Source: Eledone cirrhosa
Taxonomy: Eukaryota
Assembly: GCA_964016885.1 (NCBI GenBank)
Contig: OZ024740.1
Coordinates: 60,698,001-60,762,000 of the forward strand
Length of the DNA stretch: 64,000 nt
Direction: 5' to 3'
A program made the translations under genes and the position numbers. The notes under the pieces are model-generated. The model had not been told where the DNA came from and searched no databases. It saw only the letters and a list, made by a program, of their open reading frames with translations. Shown here piece after piece: positions 22,082-60,730 of the stretch (the stretch's first letter is position 1; every line of letters begins with the position of its first letter).

Positions 22082-22227
22082 TAAGTCAGTCCCCAACTTA
22101 CAAATGGGTTATGTTCCAAGAGATGGTTCGTTAATTGATTTGATTGTAAGTTGATCATCTAACACAGTATGTACCAGTAAGCCCATATATGTTACATTGT
22201 TATATATATACCTCTATATACTGTGTA

Positions 22228-23666
22228 GAAGCCATGTATAGGGGAGCAGTCAGCAAAGTTAGGATTAGCAATGAGTATAGCGAGGAATTTAGTGTACAGG
22301 TTGGTGTCCACCAGGGCTCTGTTCTTAGCCCTCTCCTGTTCATCATAGTCCTGCAGGCAATAATGGAGGAGTTTAAGACCGGATGCCCATGGGAACTCCT
22401 GTATGCTAATGACCTCACACTTATAGCTGATTCTAAGGTAGAACTAGAGAAGAAATTCCAAACTTGGAAGCAGGGACTAGAAAGAAAGGGTCTCAAAGTC
22501 AACATGACAAAGACTAAGGTCCTTGTAAGTAGACGAGAAAACAGAACCCAGATCCCCTCAGGGAAATGGCCTGGCTCAGTATGTAGGAAAGGTGTAGGTA
22601 GGAACTCCATTCTCTGCCCCAAATGCAAACAATGGGTACACAAGAGATGTAGCGGGATCTCAGGAAGCTTAATTAAGAATGTAGGTTTCACATGTAGCAG
22701 CTGTGCTGGAGCAGCAAACAGCCACAGGAAACAAGTACCACCAATCTCTGGGAGGGCTCTGTAGAAACAGTAGACAGCTTCTGCTACCTAGGTGACCGAA
22801 TTAACAGCGGAGGTGGTTGTTCAGAAAGTACAATAACTAGGGTAAGAACGGGATGGAAGAAGTTCAGGGAACTACTGCCACTGCTAGCTGCAAAAGGTTT
22901 CTCCCTCAAAATGAAAGGCAGACTGTATGATGCGTGTATACGAACAGCAATGTTACATGGTAGTGAGACCTGGGCGCTGAAGGTGGAAGACTTATGTAGA
23001 TTAGAGAGAAACGAAGCCTGCATGCTCCGATGGATGTGTAATAGTAAAATACGCGAGCAACAAAGCATAAATGAATTGAGAGAGAGACTGAGCATAAGAG
23101 GAATCAAATGCTGTGTGCAGGAGAGGCGGTTGCGTTGGTATGGACATGTGATGCCTATGAAGGATGACAGCTGCATAAAAAGGTGCAGAGCACTAGAAGT
23201 TGATGGAAACCGCGGAGTGGGGAGACCCAAGATGACCTGGGATGAGGTGATAAAAGCCGACCTTACACAATTACACCTCTCAAAGGCGATGACACACGAC
23301 CGTGACCTCTGGCGTCACGCAGTAATACAGAGTACCCGACCTCCCATGGGTACCAAGCTGAAGCATATAGACAATATGCCCCCACACCCTCCCACTGTAA
23401 AGTGGTCGTAGAGGTGCCACGGCAAAAAAGCACCCAGCCCACACTGTAAAGTGGATGTCTAGGCACCACGGAAAAGCACCCAGCACTCACTGTAAATGAG
23501 GTTGGTGTTAGGAACGGCATCCAGCTGTAGAAATCAAGCCAAATCAGTTCCTGTATGAGCAAGGCATGGTCAGCCAACCAGACACTGTCCACAACAGGAC
23601 AACCCGTCTAACCCATGCTAGTGTGGAAGAACGGACGTAAAACGGTGATGGTGATGATGATGATGA
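22228..23666 (+). mobile_element. RTE-B 5'-truncated copy with one frameshift
   Basis: ORFs 22189..22764 and 22911..23411 are near-identical to 1006..2166; YADD is mutated to YAND; (GAT)n tail. Confidence 0.95.
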
Positions 23667-23844: not shown

Positions 23845-23914
23845 ATTTTATTTTATCTGATGAGGACGTACTGTTGAACTTAATTCAGTACCTCTGAAAT
23901 ATGTATAATAAAAT
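23845..23914 (+). ncRNA. Hammerhead motif (slightly decayed) in a (TA)n-bounded segment 23690-23965
   Basis: attttattttat CTGATGA ggacgtactg..cagtacctct GAAA tatg TA taataaaat. Stem I register is imperfect. Confidence 0.65.
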
Positions 23915-43283: not shown

Positions 43284-43425
43284 CATACATATATATATAT
43301 ATAATATAACTGTGTAAAATTGCCTCCTGTGTTTTGTTTATTCTTTTTTCAACTATATATATATATATATATAGTTGAAAAAAGAACAAACAAAACAAAG
43401 GAGACAATTTTACACACTTATATTA
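43284..43425. repeat. ~140 bp palindrome centred on a (TA)n run
   Basis: tgtgtaaaattgcctcc..ttttttcaac (ta)n gttgaaaaaa..ggagacaattttacaca. Confidence 0.88.
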
Positions 43426-46285: not shown

Positions 46286-46883
46286 GGCTGTGTCACCAAG
46301 ATGACCAAATTTGTTCCTTGTGTACACATAACACATATAAAATAAAAACACTCACATTAGGTGTTTTTTTCAAATCTTTATCATTTTTCCTATATAACAC
46401 AATTTATACAGAAATCATTAATTTTCCAACATTTTGACTTTTTCTCTCCCTCCATATATATATACATCATAATCACCATCATTTTTACGTCTATTTTTCC
46501 ATGCTTAAACATGTCTTTTTCAGTACAGTATCTCTCCATTTGCTGCGTTTCTTCATTATAATGATTTAATGTCTGTTTTCCCAGCTGGCAACTATGTAAT
46601 ATGAGAGCTGCAACGTGATAATATCTGTCTCCCCCATTTAGTGACTGGTATGGTCCATGACTGGTTTACAAAATATGGAAATGAAGGTTGGGGTTTGGTT
46701 TAGCAGGAGTTATATGTGCAGGTCTGTGATGGGTTTACGGTATTTTGTAAGTGATTGGTTTATAGGTCAAAGCAATCAATGGTCTTATTTGCATATATAA
46801 ATCAGAATGGATGCAGTAAAATCTGTTAGACCATTACTCACCAGAGTACTCGATACTTGGGGTAGTAGAGTGTGGTAATATAT

Positions 46884-48451
46884 ATCATCATCATCATCAT
46901 CATTTAACGTCCATCTTCCACGCTTGCATGGGTTTGGACGGGAGTTTTCCCATCTGAGGCAAGAGTGGTTGTCCTGCTCGTATAGAACTGTCTGGTGGGT
47001 TTTCTACGGCTGGATGCCCTTCCCAACACCAACCACGTTTACAGTGTGGACTGGGAGGTTTTTACCGTGTTACCTACACGGCCACATTACAGCATGGACT
47101 GTGTGTTTTTTTTTTTTGTCGTGACACCTACACGACCTCATTTGTTTCAGACTGGATGTTATGGTACCAACATAACTTTACATAGAACGGGGTGGTGTGG
47201 ATGGGGTGGGGGTAGTGGGACGGGGGTGTATTTCGTTAGAGGTGCCTACTGACTGTAGGTTTTGCTTTGCACTTAGGCAAGGCGGGTCTTCTGTATAACT
47301 GTGTAGCGCCAAAGCTCTCAGTCCAGTGACATTGTCTTGGAGAGGTGTAAGTGTGTGAGGTCGGAATTTATCAAGTCATCCCAGGTTTTTCTGGGTCTGC
47401 CTACTCCGTGGCTACCGTCTATTTTTATTGCCCTGCACTTTTTTATACAGCTGTCGTCTTTCATGCGCATCACATGACGGTACCAACGTAGTCTTCTCTC
47501 CAGTAAACAGCATCTGATCCCTTATTCCTAATTTCTCCCTTAGTTCGTTTATGCTTTGCCGTTCACGTATATTACTATTACACATCCAACGGAGCATGCA
47601 AGCTTCGTTTCTCTCCAGTCTGCGTATATCCTCTGCACACAATGCCCAGGTCTCACTGCCATGTAACATTGCTGTTTGTATGCAGGCATCATACAGCCTG
47701 CCTTTCATTTTTAGAGAGAACCCTTTAGCGGCCAATAGTGGTATAAGCTCTCTGAACTTTTTCCATCCAGTTCTAACTCTAGCTACTGTACTTTCAGAGC
47801 ACCCTCCCCCACTGCTGATTTTGTCACCCAGGTAACGGAAGCTGTCCACTATTTCTATAGAACCATCTGTGCAATGGAATGAGCTAGTATTCTGTGGGCA
47901 CTTGCTGCTACTTATTGCACCAGAGCACCGGCCACATATAGAATCTATATTCTTAGTTAGCTTAGTTAGCTAGGTACTTCTCCTGTAGTTGTCGTACAAT
48001 GAAGAGAGCGTCTGTTGTACTTTTACCTGACACAAACCCAAACTGCATTTCATCTAGATCAATTCGCTCTCTGATTAGTTGTGCTATTACTTTTTCTGTG
48101 ACCTTCATGACCTGGTCAATTTATTTAATGCCTCTATAGTTACTCCTATCTAGGGCGTCTCCTTTACCCTTGTAGCAGTTAATGATGATGATGCTGCACC
48201 AGTCCTTCGGAACGACCCCATTCTGTATGACTTGGTTTACTATCCGGGTGACCATAGTGTGTCCCACCGTTCTAGATGCTTTCAGCATTTCGGCAACTAT
48301 TTCCGAAGGCCCGGCCGCCTTTCCCGTCTTCATGTCTTTGATCGCCTTACTTATTATACTACCTTCAACTTGCACTGCTGGTCCCTCTATTGGGTCGATG
48401 TGGGGGAGACTGTCTTTCTCCCAATTATTCTCCTCATTTAGTAGCCTTTCG
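46884..48451 (-). mobile_element. RTE-A 5'-truncated copy with a ~560 bp internal deletion removing the YADD region
   Basis: Colinear with 56700-58933, except for a jump at ~47965 (gttagcttagttagctaggtac) from the equivalent of ~57889 to ~58448. Confidence 0.92.
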
Positions 48452-48459
48452 TATATATA

Positions 48460-48584
48460 TACATATATATGAAGGATTTGGGATCCCGATGGCTGAGCTC
48501 CTGCCGTTTCAACAGCTAGATTAGCTGTTGAAACAGCAGGAGCTCAGCCGTCGGGGTCCGAATCCTTCATATATATATATATGT
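48460..48584. repeat. Near-perfect ~125 bp hairpin made of two copies of a hammerhead 3' half, between (TA)n tracts
   Basis: Centre caacagcta-gat-tagctgttg. Arm consensus GAAA cggc aggagctca gccg TC. Confidence 0.85.
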
Positions 48585-48696
48585 AAATCAGGATCGAATC
48601 AGTTTAAAACTAGTTAGACCATTACTCACCAGAGTACTCGATACTTGGAGTAGTAGAGTGTGGTTATATGATAAAGAGTAGATTCCCAACTCTTTA

Positions 48697-48728
<32 letters not shown>

Positions 48729-48861
48729 GCAGACGTTATATTTAATTTGTTGGGATTCCAACAAACTTAAAAGTTTATAACTGATATAGAGCACTCAACA
48801 GTCTACTGGAGTAAATATTCAATATATTATTAAATGGAAGCTATATTTATAAAGCCATAAT

Positions 48862-48926
48862 TATTTTATTATATATATTTCAAGGGCAACCAAGGCAATC
48901 TTGGTACGCTTTCATCAGATAAAATA
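48862..48926 (-). ncRNA. Hammerhead motif (left arm)
   Basis: Minus strand: tattttat CTGATGA aag...ctt GAAA tatata TA ataaaata. Confidence 0.78.
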
Positions 48927-49038
48927 CAAAATTTGTTTTATAAATAGTGACATAACTGTGGAAAACAACCTATCCAGCGAATTTTCAACCGTCAAGGTTG
49001 TTTTCCACGGTATGTCACTATTTATAAAACAAATTTTG

Positions 49039-49103
49039 TATTTTATCTGATGAAAGCGCATCATAATTGCCTTGGTTGCCCTTGAAATATATATAATAAA
49101 ATA
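49039..49103 (+). ncRNA. Hammerhead motif (right arm)
   Basis: tattttat CTGATGA aagcgca...tgccctt GAAA tatata TA ataaaata. 8-bp stem I and palindromic stem III. Confidence 0.8.
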
Positions 49104-49324
49104 ATTATGTTTTATAAATATAGTTTCCATTTATTAATATATTGTATATATTTATATATATAGTTTAAAAATTCACTTATTTAGTATATGCCCACATATG
49201 TTAAGGTTATATTGTCAAATAAATAAATTGTTATTGCTTGTAGAGATGGAGCCAAGAAAGCAATATACAAGGAATTACATAAAGTGATTTGTAAAACAGA
49301 AGTTTACATGTTTTTTAATATAAA

Positions 49325-51133: not shown

Positions 51134-54100
51134 ATGAAAATGAATATGAATTCGCGAGCTACGAAGCACCCATGTGAAGCGTCAATTCAGAGACAGGAAG
51201 CATACACACACCCCTGCAAAAATCGACCCTTTCTCACAAATGTTGACAAATGCCCAAAACTCCGAGTTGGTACCATCAATGAAAGCACAATGAAAGGAAG
51301 AGCAGGAGAAATCGTAGAGATGCTAGAGCGAAAGGAAATTGATGTATGCTGTGTGCAAGAGACTAGATGGAGAGGAGAGTCTGCTAGAGTCCTTGTAGAA
51401 AAAAGTCAGTGCTACAAATTTTTCTGGGTGGGAAATGACGATGGAATGGGTGGTGTAGGTATTCTACTAGCTGACAAGTGGGTAGATAAAGTAATCTCAG
51501 TGAACAGGGTAAATGCAAGAATCATTAAACTCAGACTAGTCCTGAATAAAACAATTACCACAATAATATCAGCTTATGCACCCCAATTGGGGTTGCCAGA
51601 CGAACTTAAGGATAGGTTTTACGAGTCCCTAATGCACACTACTGCTCTAACAAACGACAATGACTTCCTAATCATTGCAGGAGATTTTAACGGACATGTA
51701 GGTAAACACCGTGATGGCTTCTATAGAGTCCATGGAAGCCATGGGGTTGGCACAAGAAATGAAGAAGGATTCAGGCTTCTAGAATTCTGCAACGCCAATG
51801 ACATGTTGATATGTAACACAAACTTCAAAAAACCCGACAACCACCTGATCACCTATAGATCAGGGGAGCATTCTAGTCAAATAGATTTTATCCTCATCAG
51901 AGGACGTGACAGATGAACGGTCGTAAACACAAAAGCCTTCCCTAGTGAGGAATGTACCTCCCAACATAGCTTAGTTGTCAGCGACCTCACGGTCAGAACT
52001 AGACGAACCTGGAAACAGAAGCCAACCTGGAGAAGAAAGATCTGGAAGCTGAAAGACCCCTCAGCCAGTAACAGATTTAAAGATATTTTACTCAACGCCT
52101 ATGACAGTAAAGAAGAACAGATAGAGACATTCAATGTAAAAGAGCACTGGGAATTCCTAAAAAATAACTTACTAGAGGCGACGGATGAGATCTGTGGCTG
52201 GAGTAAGACCACAGGCAGGCAGAGAGTGACTTGGTGGTGGAATAATAAGATAGATGAGGCAGTTAAGGCCAAGAGACAGGCATGGAAAGAATGGAAGAAC
52301 AGGGGAAGCAGGGTACATTACATAGAGACCAGGAGGGAAGCTAGGCGACAAGTATACTTAGCTAGGAGAGAAGCAGAGGATAGAAAATTCAAGCATGTTT
52401 TGCAACGTGAGGACCAGAAACAGGAGGTGTTCAAGATTGTGCAGCAGTGTGTCAGAGAGAATTGTGATGTCATTGGAGAGAAGTGTATCCGGAATGATAA
52501 AGGTGAGCTTGCTCTCACAAGTGCTAAGAAGAAAGATGCGTGGAAGAGCCATTATGATAGATTATTAAATGAGGAGAATGCATGGGAAGAAGAGACCCTA
52601 CCCCAAGTAGACCCTATAGAGGAGCCAGCAGTACAAGTCAGCAGCAGCGTAGTAAGTAAGGCAATCAAAGATATGAAGATGGAGAAGGCAACCGGTCCAT
52701 CGAGTATAGCTGCCAAGATGCTGAAAGCAACTGGATCGGTAGGTGACACCATAACCACACGTATTGTTAACCAGGTAATACTAGGTGTCATACCAAAGGA
52801 TTGGTGCAGTAGCATCATTGACAACTGCTACAAAGGTAAATGTGATGCACTAGATAGAAGAAACTATAGAGGTATAAAGTTGATGGACCAGGTCATGAAA
52901 GTAACAGAAAGAGTTATAGCACAGTTGATTAGGGACCGGGTGAAACTAGATGAAATGCAATTTGGGTTTGTGCCAGGAAGAGGCACCACTGATGCCCTCT
53001 TCCTTGTGAAGCAGTTACAGGAAAAGTACCTAGCTAAAAGTAAGCCATTCTACCTGGCATTCTTCAATCTCGAGAAAGCCTTTGACAGAGTTCCCCATGC
53101 TATAATCTGGTGGGCTCTTAGAAAACTAAGAGTAGATGAATGGCTTGTGAAAGCTGTACAAGACATGTATACAGGAGCAGTCAGCAAAGTTAGGATTAGC
53201 AATGAGTATAACGAGGAATTTAGCGTACAGGTCGGTGTCCACCAGGGCTCTGTTCTTAGCCCTCTCCTGTTCATCATAGCAAGCAATAACAGAGGCGTCC
53301 TGCAAGCAATAACAGAGGCGTTTAAGACTGGATGCCCATGGGAACTCCTGTATGCAGATGACCTCACACTTATAGCTGAATCTATGGTAGAACTAGAGAA
53401 GAAATTCCAAACTTGGAAGCAGGGACTAGAAAGAAAGGGTCTCAAAGTCAACCTGACAAAGACTAAGGTCCTTGTAAGTAGACGAGAAAACAGAACCCAG
53501 ATCCCCTCAGGGAAATGGCCTTGCTCAGTATGTAGGAAAGGTGTAGTTAGGAACTCCATTCTCTGCCCCAAATGCAAATAATGGGTACACAAGAGATGTA
53601 GCAGGATCTCAGGAAGCTTAATTAAGAATGTAGGCTTCACATGTAACAGTTGTGCTGGGACAGCAAGCAGCAGACAGCCACAGAAAACAAGTACCACCAA
53701 ACTCTGGGAGGGCTCTGTAGAAACAGTAGACAGCGTCTGCTACTTAGGTGACCGAATTAGCAGCGGAAGTGGGTGTTCGGAAAGTATAATAACTAGGGTA
53801 AGAACGGGATGGAAGAAGTTCAGGGAGTAACTGCCACTGCTAGCTGCAAAAGGCTTTTCCCTCAAAATGAAAGGCAGACTGTATGATGCATGTATACGAA
53901 CAGCAATGTTACATGGTAGTGAGCCCAGGGCGCTGTTTGTGGAAGACTTGCGTGGATTAGAAAGAAACGAAGCCTGCATGCTCCGATGGATGTGTAATAG
54001 TAATATACGCGAACGACAAATCATAAGTGAATTGAGAGACTGAGTATAAGAGGAATCAAATGCTGTGTGCAGGAGAGGCAGTTGCGTTGGTATGGACATG

Positions 54101-54615
54101 TGATGTGTATGAAGGATGACAGCTGCATAAAAAGGTGCAGAGCACTAGAAGTCGATGGAAACCGCGGAGTGGGGAGACTCAAGAAGACCTGGGATGAGGT
54201 GATAAAAGCCGACCTTACCCAATTACACCTCTCAAAGGCGATGACACATGACCGTGACCTCTGGCATCACGCAGTAATACAGGAGACCTGACCCCCCCAC
54301 AGGTACAAGCCAAAGCTGAAGCATATAGACAATATATCCCACACCTTCCCACTGCAAAGTGGTTGTGGAGGTGCCACGGCAAAAAAGCACCCAGCCCACA
54401 CTGTAAAGTGGACGTGTAGACGCCACGGAAAAAAGCACCCAGCACTCACTGTAAATGAGGTTGGTGTTAGGAAAGGCATCCAGCTGTAGAAATCAAGCCA
54501 GAATCAGTTCCCGTATGAGCAAGGCAAGGTCAGCCGACCGGACACTGCTATACAACAGGACAACCCATCTAACCCATGCTAGTGTGGAAGAACGGACGTA
54601 AAACGGTGATGATGA
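51134..54615 (+). mobile_element. Near-full-length RTE-B LINE (AP endonuclease + RT + Cys/His finger), inactivated by stops and frameshifts
   Basis: APE motifs VQETRW, SAYAPQ, AGDFNGHVG, QIDFIL. RT motifs NYRGIKL, QFGF, QGSVLSPLLF, YADD. In-frame stops at ~51914, 53579 and 53828. 3'UTR and (GAT)n tail. Confidence 0.95.
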
Positions 54616-55789: not shown

Positions 55790-58700
55790 AGAGGGTCATA
55801 TCAGAAATGTTTTAAAATGTTATCTAATCATCTTGTGGCCTACCTCTGAGTCTTCTGCAGTTAGATTTGCCCATAAATTCTGTCTAGTGATTCTATCCTT
55901 AGACATTCTAACCACATGTCTATAGTACCATCTCTCGATGCAGAAAAATACTGAATCCCTAATCTCTGGATCACAGACCCTATTGAGTAATATTACTCCA
56001 AAAACCTTTCATAGGAACCCCATTTCAGCTGTTTATATTCACAATCATATTCTCTCAGATTCATAACCATTGTTAAGAGTAAGCAGAAACCAAAATTGAA
56101 CATAGCAAGTTTGGCTTTTACACTTACCTCCCTTCTTCTGATAACAGAAGGATGAAGCTGGCACATTATTGTATCAATTCCAGTTTTTACATTTAATTCA
56201 GCCTCCTGCCTTGCCTCACTCATGAAAACAGCTCAGAGATACTTAAACTGCTCCACCTGTTTCAGTGGAACTCCACTCACATACAGAGTGCACAGTCATC
56301 ACAACACTGATTTTTAATTCCTGCTTTGCGGCACTAGGCCATAAACCTATCCAATGCAAGTCAAAGATTTACCTTCCAATGAGTAAATTAGAACCATATC
56401 ATCTGCAAATAGCAGTGGAATGATCCTACACCCACCACTTCCAACATGGCTGCACATCTGTTCAATGAAGATTATGAACTGGGGAGCTGATAATACACAA
56501 TCTTGGCAGAGTTTGAGACTTACATTGAATGGTTTCAACTTAGCATTTATCTGAGAAGCAATAAAAAGCTGTCCATTGATCCCATACTCTTGCAGAACCT
56601 TCCATAACAAGCCTTGTGGAATGTGGTCATATGCCTTTTCGCAGTCCACAAACAGGCATACACCTCTTAACAATACTCCCAAGATTTCTCAGAGACCTGC
56701 CATCATCATCATCAACGTTTAATGTCCGTGTTCCACGCTTGCATGGGTTTGGACGGGGGTTTTCCCACTTGAGGCAAGAGTGATTATCTTGCTCGCATAG
56801 GACTATCTGGCGGGTTTTCTACAGCTGGATGCCCTTCCTAACACCAACCACATTTACAGTGTGGGGCTGGGAGGTTTTTACCGTGTTGCCTACGCGGCCA
56901 CATTACAGCGTGGACTGTCTGGCGGGTTTTCTACAGTTGGATGCCCTTCCTAACACCAACCACATTTACAGTGTGGGGCTGGGAGGTTTTTACCGTGTTG
57001 CCTACACGGCCACATTACAGCATGAACTGTGTTTTTTTGTCGTGACACCTACACAATCTCATTTGTTTCAGCCTGGATTTTGTGGCACCAACATAATTTT
57101 ACATTGAAAGGGGCGGTGTAGATGGGGGTGGGGGTTGGGACGGGGGTGTATTTTGTTAAAGATGCCTACTGACTGTAGTAGGTTTTACTTTGTATTTAGG
57201 TAAGGCGGGTCTTCTCTATTACTGAGTACCGCCAAAGGTCTCGGTCCAGTGACATTGTCTTGGAGAGGTGTAAGTGTGTGAGGTCGGAATTTATCAGCTC
57301 GTCCCAGGTTTTTCTGGGTCTGCCTATTCCGTGGCTACCGTCTATCTTTATTGCCCTGCACTTTGTTATACAGCTATCGTCTTTCATGCGCACCACGTGA
57401 CCATACCAACGTAGCCTTCTCTCGAGTAAACAACATCTGATCCCTCTTATTCCTAATTTCTCCCTTAGTTCGTTTATGCTTTGCCGTTCACGTATATTAC
57501 TATTACTCATCCAGCGGAGCATGCAAGCTTCGTTCCTCTCTAGTCTGCGTATATCCTCTGCACACAATGCCCAGGTCTCACTACCATGTAACATTGCTGT
57601 TTGTATGCAGGCATCATACAGCCTGCCTTTCATTTTTAGAGAGACCCCTTTAGCGGCCAATAGTGGTATAAGCTCTCTGAACTTTTTCCATCCAGTTCTG
57701 ACTCTAGCTACTGTACTTTCAGAGCACCCTCCCCCACTGCTGATTTTGTCACCCAGGTAACGGAAGCTGTCCACTATTTCTATAGAACCCTCTGCACAGT
57801 TGAAAGAGCTAGTATTTTGTGGGCACTTGCTGCTACTTATTGCACCAGAGCACCGGCCACATGTAAAATCTATGTTCTTAGTTAGCTTACCTGTGATCCC
57901 ACTACATCTTTTATGCACCCATACTTTGCATTTGGGACACAAAATGGAGTTTCTACCTACGCCTTTCCTACACACTGAGCATGGCCACTTCCCGGAAGGG
58001 ACCGCCGCCTTATTTTCTTTCTTACAAACTAGAACTTTAGTCTTAGCCAGGTTAATTTTAAGGCCTTTTGATTCTAGGCCGTGCTTCCATGTTTGGAATT
58101 TCTTCTCTAGCTCGGCCATTGATTCAGCTATGAGTGTTAGGTCATCTGCGTATAGGAGTTCCCATGGGCAACCGGTCTTGAACTCCTCTGTTATAGCCTG
58201 AAGGGCAATAATAAATAGTAGGGGGCTGAGAACAGAGCCCTGATGGACGCCAACTTTTACGCTAAACTCTTCATTATATTCGTTGTTAATTCTAACCTTG
58301 CTGACTGTTTCTTTATACATGGCTTGTATAGCTCTCACAAGCCATTCATCACCACCTAGTTTTCTAAGGGCCCACCAGATAATCGAACGGGGGACTCTGT
58401 CGAAGGCTTTCTCCAAGTCGACAAAAGCTAAGTATAGGAGTTTACTTTTAGCTAGGTACTTCTCCTGTAGTTGTCGTACAATGAAAAGAGCGTCTGTGGT
58501 ACTTTTGCCTGACACAAACCCGAACTGCATTTCATCTAGATCAATTCGCTCTCTGATTAGTTGCGCTATTACTTTTTCCGTGACCTTCATGACCTGGTCG
58601 ATTAATTTAATGCCTCTATAGTTACTCCTATCTAGGGCATCTCCTTTACCCTTATAACAGTTAACGATGATGCTGCTACGCCAGTCCTTTGGAACAACCC

Positions 58701-60730
58701 CATTCTGTACGACTTGGTTAATTATCCGGGTGACCATGGTGTGTCCCACCGTACCAGATGCCTTCAGCATCTCGGCAACTATTTCTGAAGGCCCAGCCGC
58801 CTTATCCGTCTTCATATCTTTGATTGCCTTACTTATTATACTACCCTCGACTAACACTGCTGGTCCCTCTATTGGGTCGATGTGGGGGAGACTGTCTTTC
58901 TCCCATTTATTCTCCTCATTTAGTAGCCTTTCATAGTGACACTTCCAAGCTACCTTCTTATCAGCGTCGGTGATGGCAAGTACGCCGTCATCATTAAGTA
59001 CACACTTCTCCCCGACAATATCACGGTTTTCCTTGACACATTGCCTAGCAATCCTGAACACCTCACTTGAACTTTCTTTCCTCTGCTTCCCTTCTTGCGA
59101 AGTACACTTGTCTCCTAGCTTCCCTCCTGGCCACTTGATAGTCTTCTCTACTTCCCCCATCCCGCCATACTTTCCAAGCCTGCTTTTTGGCCTTAATTGA
59201 CACCTCCACCTTACTGTTCCACCACCATGTTACTCTCCTCCTGCCTACAGGCCTGCTCCAGCCACAGACTTCGTCTGCCGCCATCAGCAGGTTTGCTTTC
59301 AGGAATTCCCACTGCTCCTCTATATTGTACGACTCTAATTGCTCTTCGTTACTGTCGAAAGCATCAAGTAGTATACTTTTGAATTTATTTCTGGCTGTGG
59401 GGTCCTTTAGCTTCCATATTTTTCTCCTGAGGATAGTCCTCTTCTGTTGTCTAGTACGTCTCGTCCTGACTATTAGGTCGCTAATTATCAGTCTATGTTG
59501 GGAGGTGCATTCTTCATGGGGGAGGGATTTAGTGTTTACAACAGACACTCTGTCACGTCTTCTGGTAAGGATATAATCTACCTGGCTTGTGTGTTCCCCC
59601 GATCTATAGGTGATCAGGTGATTGTCACGTTTTTTTAAGTTAGTGTTACAGATAGTTAGGTTATTTGCGTCACAGAATTCCAGGACTCTGGAGCCTTCCT
59701 CATTTCTAGTACCAAACCCATAGCCTCCATGGATTTCATCGTAGCCGTCACAATGTTGTCCAACGTGACCATTTAGGTCGCCTGCAATAATTATATAGTC
59801 ACTGTCGGTTATTTGGGAGGTAGTGAGCATCAGTGTCTCATAGAATCTGTCTTTTATAGTGCCGGGCAGTCCGGATTGGGATGCGTACGCAGATATTACT
59901 GTCACCGTAGTTCTATTGAGGACAAGTCTTATTTTAATTATTCTGTCGTTCACTCACAGAGTGAATATTCTTTCAGTTATTCTGGGGCAAAAACCACACT
60001 GTTCATCAGGTAGTTTGGAATCGATAATATCCCTATATTTCTTTTCTAGACACTTAGCCTTGACTTTTCCAGGGAGGCTTAACAAGATATAACTAATGCA
60101 ATCTCTCTTGTCTCCCTTTTTTGAAATTTGGGATTATCATTCCCGATTGTCATTGCTTTGGTGCCTTTTCAGAAATCCAGGCCACCTGGCAAACAGAAGT
60201 CAGCCAGAGCATATCATCTTTGTTTAAGGCTTTTAACATTTAGAGCTGAATTTCATCTTCCCCAGAGGCCTTGACATATTTGAACACTTTAACTACTTTA
60301 GTGACCTCAGCCTCCTGGGGGTTAGTCTTCAACCCTGAATGCACCTCATGTACATCAGACAATGTTGTTTTGACTGGATTGCACCTATCTTAGTTCCAAC
60401 AGAGGCAAATAGTTCCATCCCATTCTTATTCATGTTACCATATTTTGAAGACACTCCTCACTACATGACCTAGGTGATTGAAACTATCAACTATTTTTAT
60501 GAGGCCTTTCAAGCATTTGAAAGAGTTTATTTCATGCTTGTACTTGTTGCTATTTAGTACTGTGGTGCATCTGCCACATACAAAGACTTCCTATTTAGTC
60601 AGCTGGCCTGGTATTCCACTATATTTCTTGCGCACTTATAGTTTATATTGAGTACACAATATGTAGTTACTACATATCAAGCACAGTCATTTCTGAGAAA
60701 GCCGCAGATTCCTCCCTTCTTTCTTGATAA
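55790..60730 (-). mobile_element. Old decayed RTE family D, split by the RTE-A insertion (parts ~55790-56699 and ~59955-60730)
   Basis: The minus strand reads FKKGDKRDC..Y..LLSLPGKV...DEQCGF..IFTL up to 59955, and resumes QVSEKSWEY..FVDCEKAYD...LFADD below 56700. Confidence 0.75.
56700..59954 (-). mobile_element. Near-full-length RTE-A LINE, 5'-truncated within the endonuclease, one frameshift
   Basis: ORFs 59063..59953 (APE: AGDLNGHVG, QVDYIL, SQHRL) and 57196..59160 (RT: FVDLEKAFD, YADD). 3'UTR has a duplicated module and a (CAT)n tail. Confidence 0.96.

Follow-up and report, generated by a model that had tools for sequence, protein, structure and literature searches.

The palindrome lying in (TA)n sequence of the Eledone cirrhosa window (the whole 64,000-nucleotide stretch of DNA that was analysed) is probably a minimal insertion of a Hydra-type Penelope-like element (PLE), whose arms are two 3' halves of a hammerhead ribozyme. 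On the reading that we favour, two cDNAs were primed on both strands of the (TA)n target, ran toward the likely start of their RNA template and were joined end to end. Throughout, +1 is the A of a TYAGT motif in the loop of hammerhead stem II, and GAAAC begins at +19.

The window insert and its family

The preliminary description had announced a palindrome with two arms of given sequence, and this is borne out: the inverted-repeat arms at 48478-48518 and 48522-48562 are 41 nt each and 90% complementary, can be extended to about 48467-48572, and the fold of 48450-48590 reaches -57.6 kcal/mol (z -17.3), a value equalled by 0 of 200 shuffles. The right arm (48522-48572, plus strand), a tail-less copy from +11 to +62 that is 92% identical to the subfamily A reference, reads GAAA (48530-48533) CAGC AGGAGCTCA GCCG TC GGGG, with stem III at 48534-48550, GUC at 48550-48552 and GGGG at 48553-48556, and closes at 48572 on TTCATA, the proximal end of the family. 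The left arm (48467-48521, minus strand), a 5'-truncated pseudo-LTR copy from +8 to +62 that is 91% identical to the same reference, reads GAAA CGGC AGGAGCTCA GCCA TC GGGA; it consists of the end of the stem II 3' strand, GAAA, stem III, AUC (a decayed GUC) and the 3' strand of stem I, and it is the unit that bears the tail. Each arm by itself holds one mismatch, consistent with CpG decay, and a perfect stem III with GUC is read only in the consensus of the two, as had been proposed. A motif check of the insert found no CUGANGA, again in line with the first description; the copy lacks this 5' half of the core and therefore cannot cleave in cis. The arms meet head to head at 48519-48523, on the family's self-complementary CTAGATCTAG stretch, and the centre is at 48520, 10 nt 5' of GAAA. 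That distance had been read correctly, whereas the placing of the centre at the loop of stem II does not hold, as the axis falls in the 3' strand of the long stem II, outside the loop, which is not kept. The (TA)n target flank occupies 48573-48585 on the tail-less side, and a TA-rich junction (48454-48466) lies between the left arm and the 5' end of a LINE.

The insert is larger than first described because this LINE appears to have cut off its tail (46881-46802). The ~78-nt tail (46802-46881, minus strand), which covers +61 to about +140 and is 95% identical over 81 nt to the subfamily A tail, is displaced by 1.6 kb from the palindrome, lies on the strand of the left arm and starts precisely at the arm/tail boundary; from strand, order, subfamily and this exact boundary we infer that it belongs to the window palindrome. 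The LINE itself (46886-48453, minus strand), which is 5'-truncated, carries an internal deletion and is not part of the element, is 89-92% identical to a copy at 56701-58935, and RTE type is the name used here for its RT family. ATATATAT flanks it on both sides and is a possible target duplication. The window palindrome is likely an ordinary one-tailed copy that predates the LINE, whose later insertion would have separated the tail from the left arm.

The surroundings hold further repeats. RTE-type LINE copies occur in the window at 1006-2268, 22150-23411, 51134-54144 and 57196-59953. A second insert of the same family adjoins the first in its (TA)n flank (48588-48693) and consists of a tail and a very short palindrome of another subfamily, with arms ending ACTCTTTATAAT; a similar one is found at locus L085. 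At 48815-49149 there is a 335-bp head-to-head inverted repeat with an outward-pointing CTGATGA..GAAA in each arm, which resembles the minimal hammerhead of a further PLE-like family, the axis being about 60 nt 5' of the core; related motifs lie near 23857 and 34086. A further inverted repeat, of the tail-to-tail form and centred on (TA)n, spans 43308-43419.

In the genome searched (3.0 Gb, 1,796 contigs), the palindrome query yielded 1,780 candidates; all 40 that were scored proved to be palindromes, flanked by (TA)n at both ends and carrying the ~78-nt tail on a single side. Matches to exact 20-nt arm motifs number 513 for the window variant, 5,607 for a sister variant and 53,422 for subfamily C, against 0 for reversed control motifs. 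The tail motif has 31,708 matches, and in subfamily C alone 13,928 short palindromes retain an intact arm on either side of the centre. An ordinary MITE with terminal inverted repeats that came to meet after an internal deletion would account for inverted arms in a TA context and for best BLAST matches that are themselves palindromes. It is scarcely credible and stands refuted in view of the one-sided tail, the variable 5' truncation, the continuity in one orientation with an ORF for reverse transcriptase (RT) and GIY-YIG, and the whole hammerhead of the long copies; the preliminary description had named full palindromes without CUGANGA-bearing copies as the mark of a MITE, and here CUGANGA-bearing relatives exist and the tail is one-sided. 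Such inserts are nevertheless a source of genomic hairpins that annotation could mislabel as MITEs or microRNA precursors: a plant microRNA model of Rfam scored 62 bits on the window copy, within a set of matches that were only sub-threshold and of the microRNA hairpin type.

The parent element and its long-loop hammerhead

The element from which these copies derive is about 3.1-3.5 kb long and encodes an RT with a C-terminal GIY-YIG endonuclease. At locus L280, which belongs to subfamily C, an open 719-aa ORF follows the tail, which makes the tail the start of the ORF leader; its motifs are RWR, DKT, YRDD, CxCx5C, YIG and CxxC..E..N..CxH. Four loci share more than 1.4 kb 5' of the ribozyme, comprising the end of the endonuclease ORF, then the 3' UTR and then the hammerhead, and the remnant ORFs of subfamilies A and B, the window's group, are 53-65% identical to the L280 ORF. 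The atlas placed this ORF at 0.97-0.99 to animal clusters, in some of which GIY-YIG or RVT is assigned to 18-50% or more of the members; Pfam, queried with three pieces of the ORF, and a PDB sequence search gave no match. The available text of PMC8557442 defines the Hydra clade by DKT, an RWK-like motif, a CxCx5C linker, and CxxC and CxH around E and N in an endonuclease described there as devoid of CCHH. The L280 ORF carries this set with RWR in place of RWK, the clade being assigned by motifs, and insertion into (TA)n, another trait of the clade, is likewise found. Membership of the Neptune clade was considered and dropped, since the CxCx5C linker and DKT point to Hydra.

The structure of the copies is also that of Penelope-like elements, with pseudo-LTRs in partial tandem and inverted arrangement, an optional tail and a hammerhead within the pseudo-LTR. 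In ten long insertions two copies, each truncated at its 5' end, face each other head to head, and a terminal tail is present at just one end; the window palindrome is the smallest version of these. Arrays of four whole elements spaced by 3,531-3,543 bp were observed on the contig designated C1 (C1:91476610-91487262 and C1:437200348-437210966). Tandem units of 257-299 bp with a tail-to-ORF junction occur at C2:356030079-356031001 and at L283-L284, where the repeat restarts at -2; they are possibly retrozyme-like derivatives. Three loci (L326, L393, L394) have undergone internal deletions between two GCCGTC repeats that take out GAAA and stem III.

Long copies carry a type I hammerhead motif with a long stem II. 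They read CCCC CUGAGGA G, the stem II 5' strand, a 33-nt loop, the stem II 3' strand, GAAAC, stem III, GUC and GGGG, so that CCCC supplies the stem I partner for GGGG that had been predicted. The same prediction had placed CUGANGA directly 5' of the palindrome axis. Relatives with this half do exist (25 exact matches, and 6,931 copies with a wider core pattern), but none has it within 30 nt of the arm, and CUGAGGA or its U3-A8 form UUGANAA sits 55 nt 5' of GAAA. Among the first 100 listed of the 6,931, the core is U3-A8 in 74, C3.A8 in 24, U3.G8 in 2 and C3-G8 in 0. The available parts of the reports concerned describe U3-A8 as a natural, active covariant (PMC3088659) that also occurs in PLEs (PMC4209133); the 24 copies with a C3.A8 mismatch imply that strict selection on cleavage may be absent. 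In a helix alignment of 18 hand-picked long copies and the two window arms, 92.4% of cells are paired and stem II shows three double-sided changes; its rows are related and the changes are not independent events, so that the alignment counts as support and gives no probability. The long copies thus present three helices with helix I open and compensatory changes, and the GAAA and CUGA halves co-fold into stems I-III, which follows from the sequence alone. Rfam listed no hammerhead among 24 matches to L099 at E up to 10, a miss that the long loop II may explain, and the fold of one full hammerhead was no better than that of its shuffles (z -0.38). No peak of 5' ends was seen at the cleavage site (+42), where 3 of 90 arms begin at +41 to +43 and 1 of 30 ORF-leading units at +42, in agreement with what is described for the Poseidon PLE PAc (PMC11167929). 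More remote hammerheads built on the same long-loop plan were noticed at L097, L103 and L109, the first of which retains TCAGTT exactly 18 nt 5' of GAAAC.

The 5' wall and the joining of the arms

The 5' ends of the arms cluster at a fixed point of the stem II loop, hereafter the wall. Among 114 motif-selected arms (87 from 90 taken of the 513 matches and 27 from 30 of the 5,607), 53 begin between 0 and +2, four of them doubtfully so, and 6 reach 5' of 0; among tail-selected arms (90 of the 31,708 matches), the start falls at -3 to +7 in 49, upstream of this in 9 and downstream of it in 32. The wall is present also in arms without an inverted partner. In subfamily C the loop is otherwise different and has the same TYAGT and the same wall, blurred over -3 to +7, with T-runs at -2. 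Four truncated arms of this subfamily (L231, L236, L015, L163) show T-runs of about 10-25 nt directly before -2, which suggests slippage at the end of an RNA beginning with U.

A capped transcription start at +1, on an initiator-like TYAGT inside the stem II loop, is likely from the sequence features gathered here. All 61 long copies have T or C immediately before +1, whereas 123 truncated arms have G there in 23 cases and A in 6 (p 0.0012); under strict matching, a G stands before 15 of the 35 starts at +2 and before 19 of the 141 at +3 to +10. Extra G is a mark of capped ends in L1 insertions, according to the portions available of PMC11702581; 10 of the 23 found here lie directly against the partner arm, which may have templated them. 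At +1, motifs spaced as in Inr/MTE/DPE promoters score 16-19 of 24, a value that at most 0.5% of window positions attain, the motifs being those of Drosophila (PMC4581360), scored post hoc against an AT-rich background; within the element, this site takes rank 1 or 2 among 66-68, ties included. In D. virilis, the pseudo-LTR of Penelope is known to contain an internal Inr/DPE promoter (PMC2377424). Of 30 ORF-leading units (from 306 loci), defined by a tail that runs into the leader, 6 start at -2 to +7, 7 at +12 to +102 and 17 far upstream, which indicates that read-through or tandem templates are also used. Five of the six that start at the wall have a short inverted arm attached directly and one is a tandem repeat, two of the six coming from one insertion. 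Contigs of three public runs aligned to one long copy show a summed depth that rises across +1, in the run X1 from 72,840 just before it to 924,881 just after; such depth is not a copy number, comes from a run of unstated type that may be the window's own source, and was left out of the evidence.

The wall could also mark a site in the stem II loop where reverse transcriptase stops or where the RNA is processed, with twin priming otherwise unchanged. The GC hairpin of subfamily A that ends 5 nt 5' of +1, the resemblance of TYAG to a splice acceptor and the blurring of the wall in subfamily C would suit this; we hold it to be quite unlikely, since subfamily C has no GC hairpin and still stops at TYAGT, G is in excess before +1 and +2, and the site is read through in thousands of long copies. 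The splice-acceptor reading of TYAG was itself rejected, there being few starts at +3 and no shared upstream exon.

Two-armed copies bear on how the arms came together. Breakpoints were read off local alignments and are accurate to within a few nt; they cover the first matches listed on contigs C1-C2. Before counting we excluded 6 duplicate matches from the arm set and 10 from the two-armed set, 5 mis-called starts at CTAGATC, 6 partners of (TA)n only, 3 internal deletions between GCCGTC repeats and 1 double-tail copy. One tail is present in 90 of 97 two-armed copies, none in 7 and two in 0; the partner of a tailed arm is tail-less in 65 of 66 cases and ends at +61 in 52 of 62. In a set of 85, the tailed arm reaches further 5' in 23, the tail-less arm in 32, and the two are equal within 3 nt in 30; in a set of 62 the corresponding figures are 16, 18 and 28. 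Start positions of the two arms are uncorrelated, and the arms of one copy share their subfamily in 42 of 44 cases, together with rare alleles. Such coupling fits one complex in which one target strand is primed at +140 and the other at +61/+62.

Self-priming would couple the arms as well: a cDNA or RNA would prime on itself near its end at short self-complementary words (GATC, AGCT, AATT), and later trimming would remove one tail and parts of the centre. Priming of this kind on an antisense template is the explanation offered for head-to-head PLE palindromes in the accessible text of PMC3846280. It accounts for the shared subfamily and rare alleles, for the arms of L275, which are 100% identical over 723 bp, for the several subfamily A junctions, the window's included, at CTAGATCTAG, and for the overlap of at least 3 nt at 13 of 62 junctions. 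On this model, however, the tailed arm has to be the template and hence to reach furthest 5'. The tail-less arm extends at least 10 nt further 5' in 21 of 85 copies, 13 of these 21 ending at the wall, and often holds 5' sequence missing from the tailed arm, from which it was thus not copied; later central deletion of palindromes could mimic part of this asymmetry. Moreover, 46 of 62 junctions have an overlap of 0-1 nt (24) or extra bases (22), loop-free junctions such as GAAC|GTTC are not primable by a hairpin, and the wall occurs in partnerless arms too. We therefore regard self-priming as rather unlikely.

The preliminary description had put forward a particular form of snap-back, in which a cDNA stopped at stem II, folded back on that hairpin and copied itself. 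That the arms are 3' halves of a hammerhead with an axis near stem II had made this attractive. Its signature has 15 matches in subfamily C, all of them ordinary arms starting at +2, so that 0 of 15 keep the 33-nt loop, against 13,928 short palindromes; the model is refuted in this subfamily, none of the two-armed copies of subfamily A that were read keeps the loop, and the arms are truncated symmetrically. The wall, in addition, lies beyond the 3' strand of stem II, which means that the RT had already passed this strand. Taken over the whole family, such an origin appears highly improbable.

A further possibility concerns the template. A SINE-like short unit with its own internal promoter, mobilised in trans from an RNA of about 140 nt in place of the 5' end of the full mRNA, would agree with the roughly eightfold excess of short arms over long copies in subfamily C (53,422 arm matches vs 6,931 long copies), with putative downstream promoter motifs inside the short unit and with the window's CAGG variant being common among short copies. 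Junctions vary from copy to copy, however, which means that the palindrome is not copied as a unit, and the same short arm is attached to ORF-leading units; we find the SINE-like reading very unlikely, and it changes the template while leaving the joining step as it is.

The mechanism that we favour for the family starts from an element with RT and C-terminal GIY-YIG, whose type I hammerhead encloses a 33-nt loop in stem II. An internal Pol II promoter would start a capped RNA at TYA+1GT in this loop, and the RNA would accordingly begin with GAAA, stem III, GUC and the 3' strand of stem I and then run through the 78 nt into the ORF. Priming would occur at two TA-like sites, +140 for one target strand and +61/+62 for the other. 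Each cDNA ends at or before +1, mostly at most 10 nt away, presumably on account of the RNA end, and the two cDNA 3' ends would then be joined with little microhomology. Priming in the 5' repeat copy would give a one-tailed palindrome of 100-200 bp and priming in the 3' repeat copy a long insertion with an inverted pseudo-LTR. With a start in loop II the mRNA would be a split ribozyme, GAAA half 5' and CUGA half 3'. It is tempting, as a tentative extension drawn from motifs, to imagine a promoter within the hammerhead with GAAAC as its downstream motif, a split-ribozyme mRNA that might be rejoined through the long stem II, and a dimeric enzyme priming both strands. If true, a promoter in a ribozyme combined with priming on both strands would explain the one-sided tail, the inverted pseudo-LTRs of PLEs generally and the tens of thousands of micro-palindromes. 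With at least 13,928 natural junctions in a single genome, the family bears on the formation of PLE inverted repeats, and it provides a test system in which the 719-aa ORF is open, RT has two start sites and the transcription start is predicted to the base.

Comparison with known systems

How the inverted repeats and one-sided tails of PLEs are formed is named an open question in PMC8557442, in the part available. The literature searched, which took in few subscription journals and lay outside Repbase and Dfam, contained neither a PLE start inside a hammerhead nor twin priming as a source of inverted pseudo-LTRs. The element type, the hammerhead and the inverted repeats are already known; the likely start within a long-loop ribozyme and the counts that favour twin priming over self-priming would be the new part.

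A close relative is Hydra-1_Obim, as described in the accessible sections of PMC8557442. It shares the C-terminal GIY-YIG, DKT, RW(K/R), CxCx5C, CxxC and CxH around E and N, the (TA)n target and a hammerhead, and by eye its ORF is a clear homologue. It is presented there with a canonical short stem II and 'no pLTR'. The family studied here is a different one, with a stem II loop of 33 nt, a tail of ~78 nt and short copies in the tens of thousands; its arm and tail motifs are absent from supplement file 1 of that report. The inverted pseudo-LTRs of other PLEs, in the available portions of PMC3846280 and PMC8557442, have a 5'-truncated inverted copy at the 5' end, a tail at one end and palindromes at the junction, as here, with a tail of 30-40 bp in place of ~78. 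These structures are ascribed to self-priming in the former and left open in the latter, while we favour two cDNAs and a fixed 5' wall. PLE hammerheads, judging from the part of PMC4209133 at hand, likewise are of type I, lie in the pseudo-LTR and have a long helix II, a palindromic loop 3 (GAGCUC) and the U3-A8 variant, and pairs on opposite strands 100-700 bp apart are described; unlike them, most copies here are 3' halves only, cut at a fixed point in loop II.

Non-LTR retrozymes, as far as the accessible text of 10.64898/2026.07.22.740005 goes, are likewise non-autonomous, derive from PLE pseudo-LTRs and carry type I hammerheads. They are tandem direct repeats with whole ribozymes, whereas the copies described here are inverted pairs of half-ribozymes, and the window palindrome was not classed as a retrozyme on this account.

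Two systems offer parallels for the priming step. In PAc, according to the sections available of PMC11167929, both target strands are cleaved and extended in vitro, and two RT start sites delimit the tail; this Poseidon element resembles ours in its AT-rich target, its predicted dimer and insertions without a trace of ribozyme cleavage. It belongs to another clade, and those sections are silent on inverted repeats and on where the RNA begins. In the twin priming of L1, the available text of PMC11702581 reports that the second strand primes internally, that the products are joined head to head and that capped ends carry an extra G, as seems to be the case here. The L1 products are inversions with little duplication, whereas both cDNAs of the present family usually cover +1 to +62, so that a palindrome results, and the start sites, unlike those of L1, are fixed.
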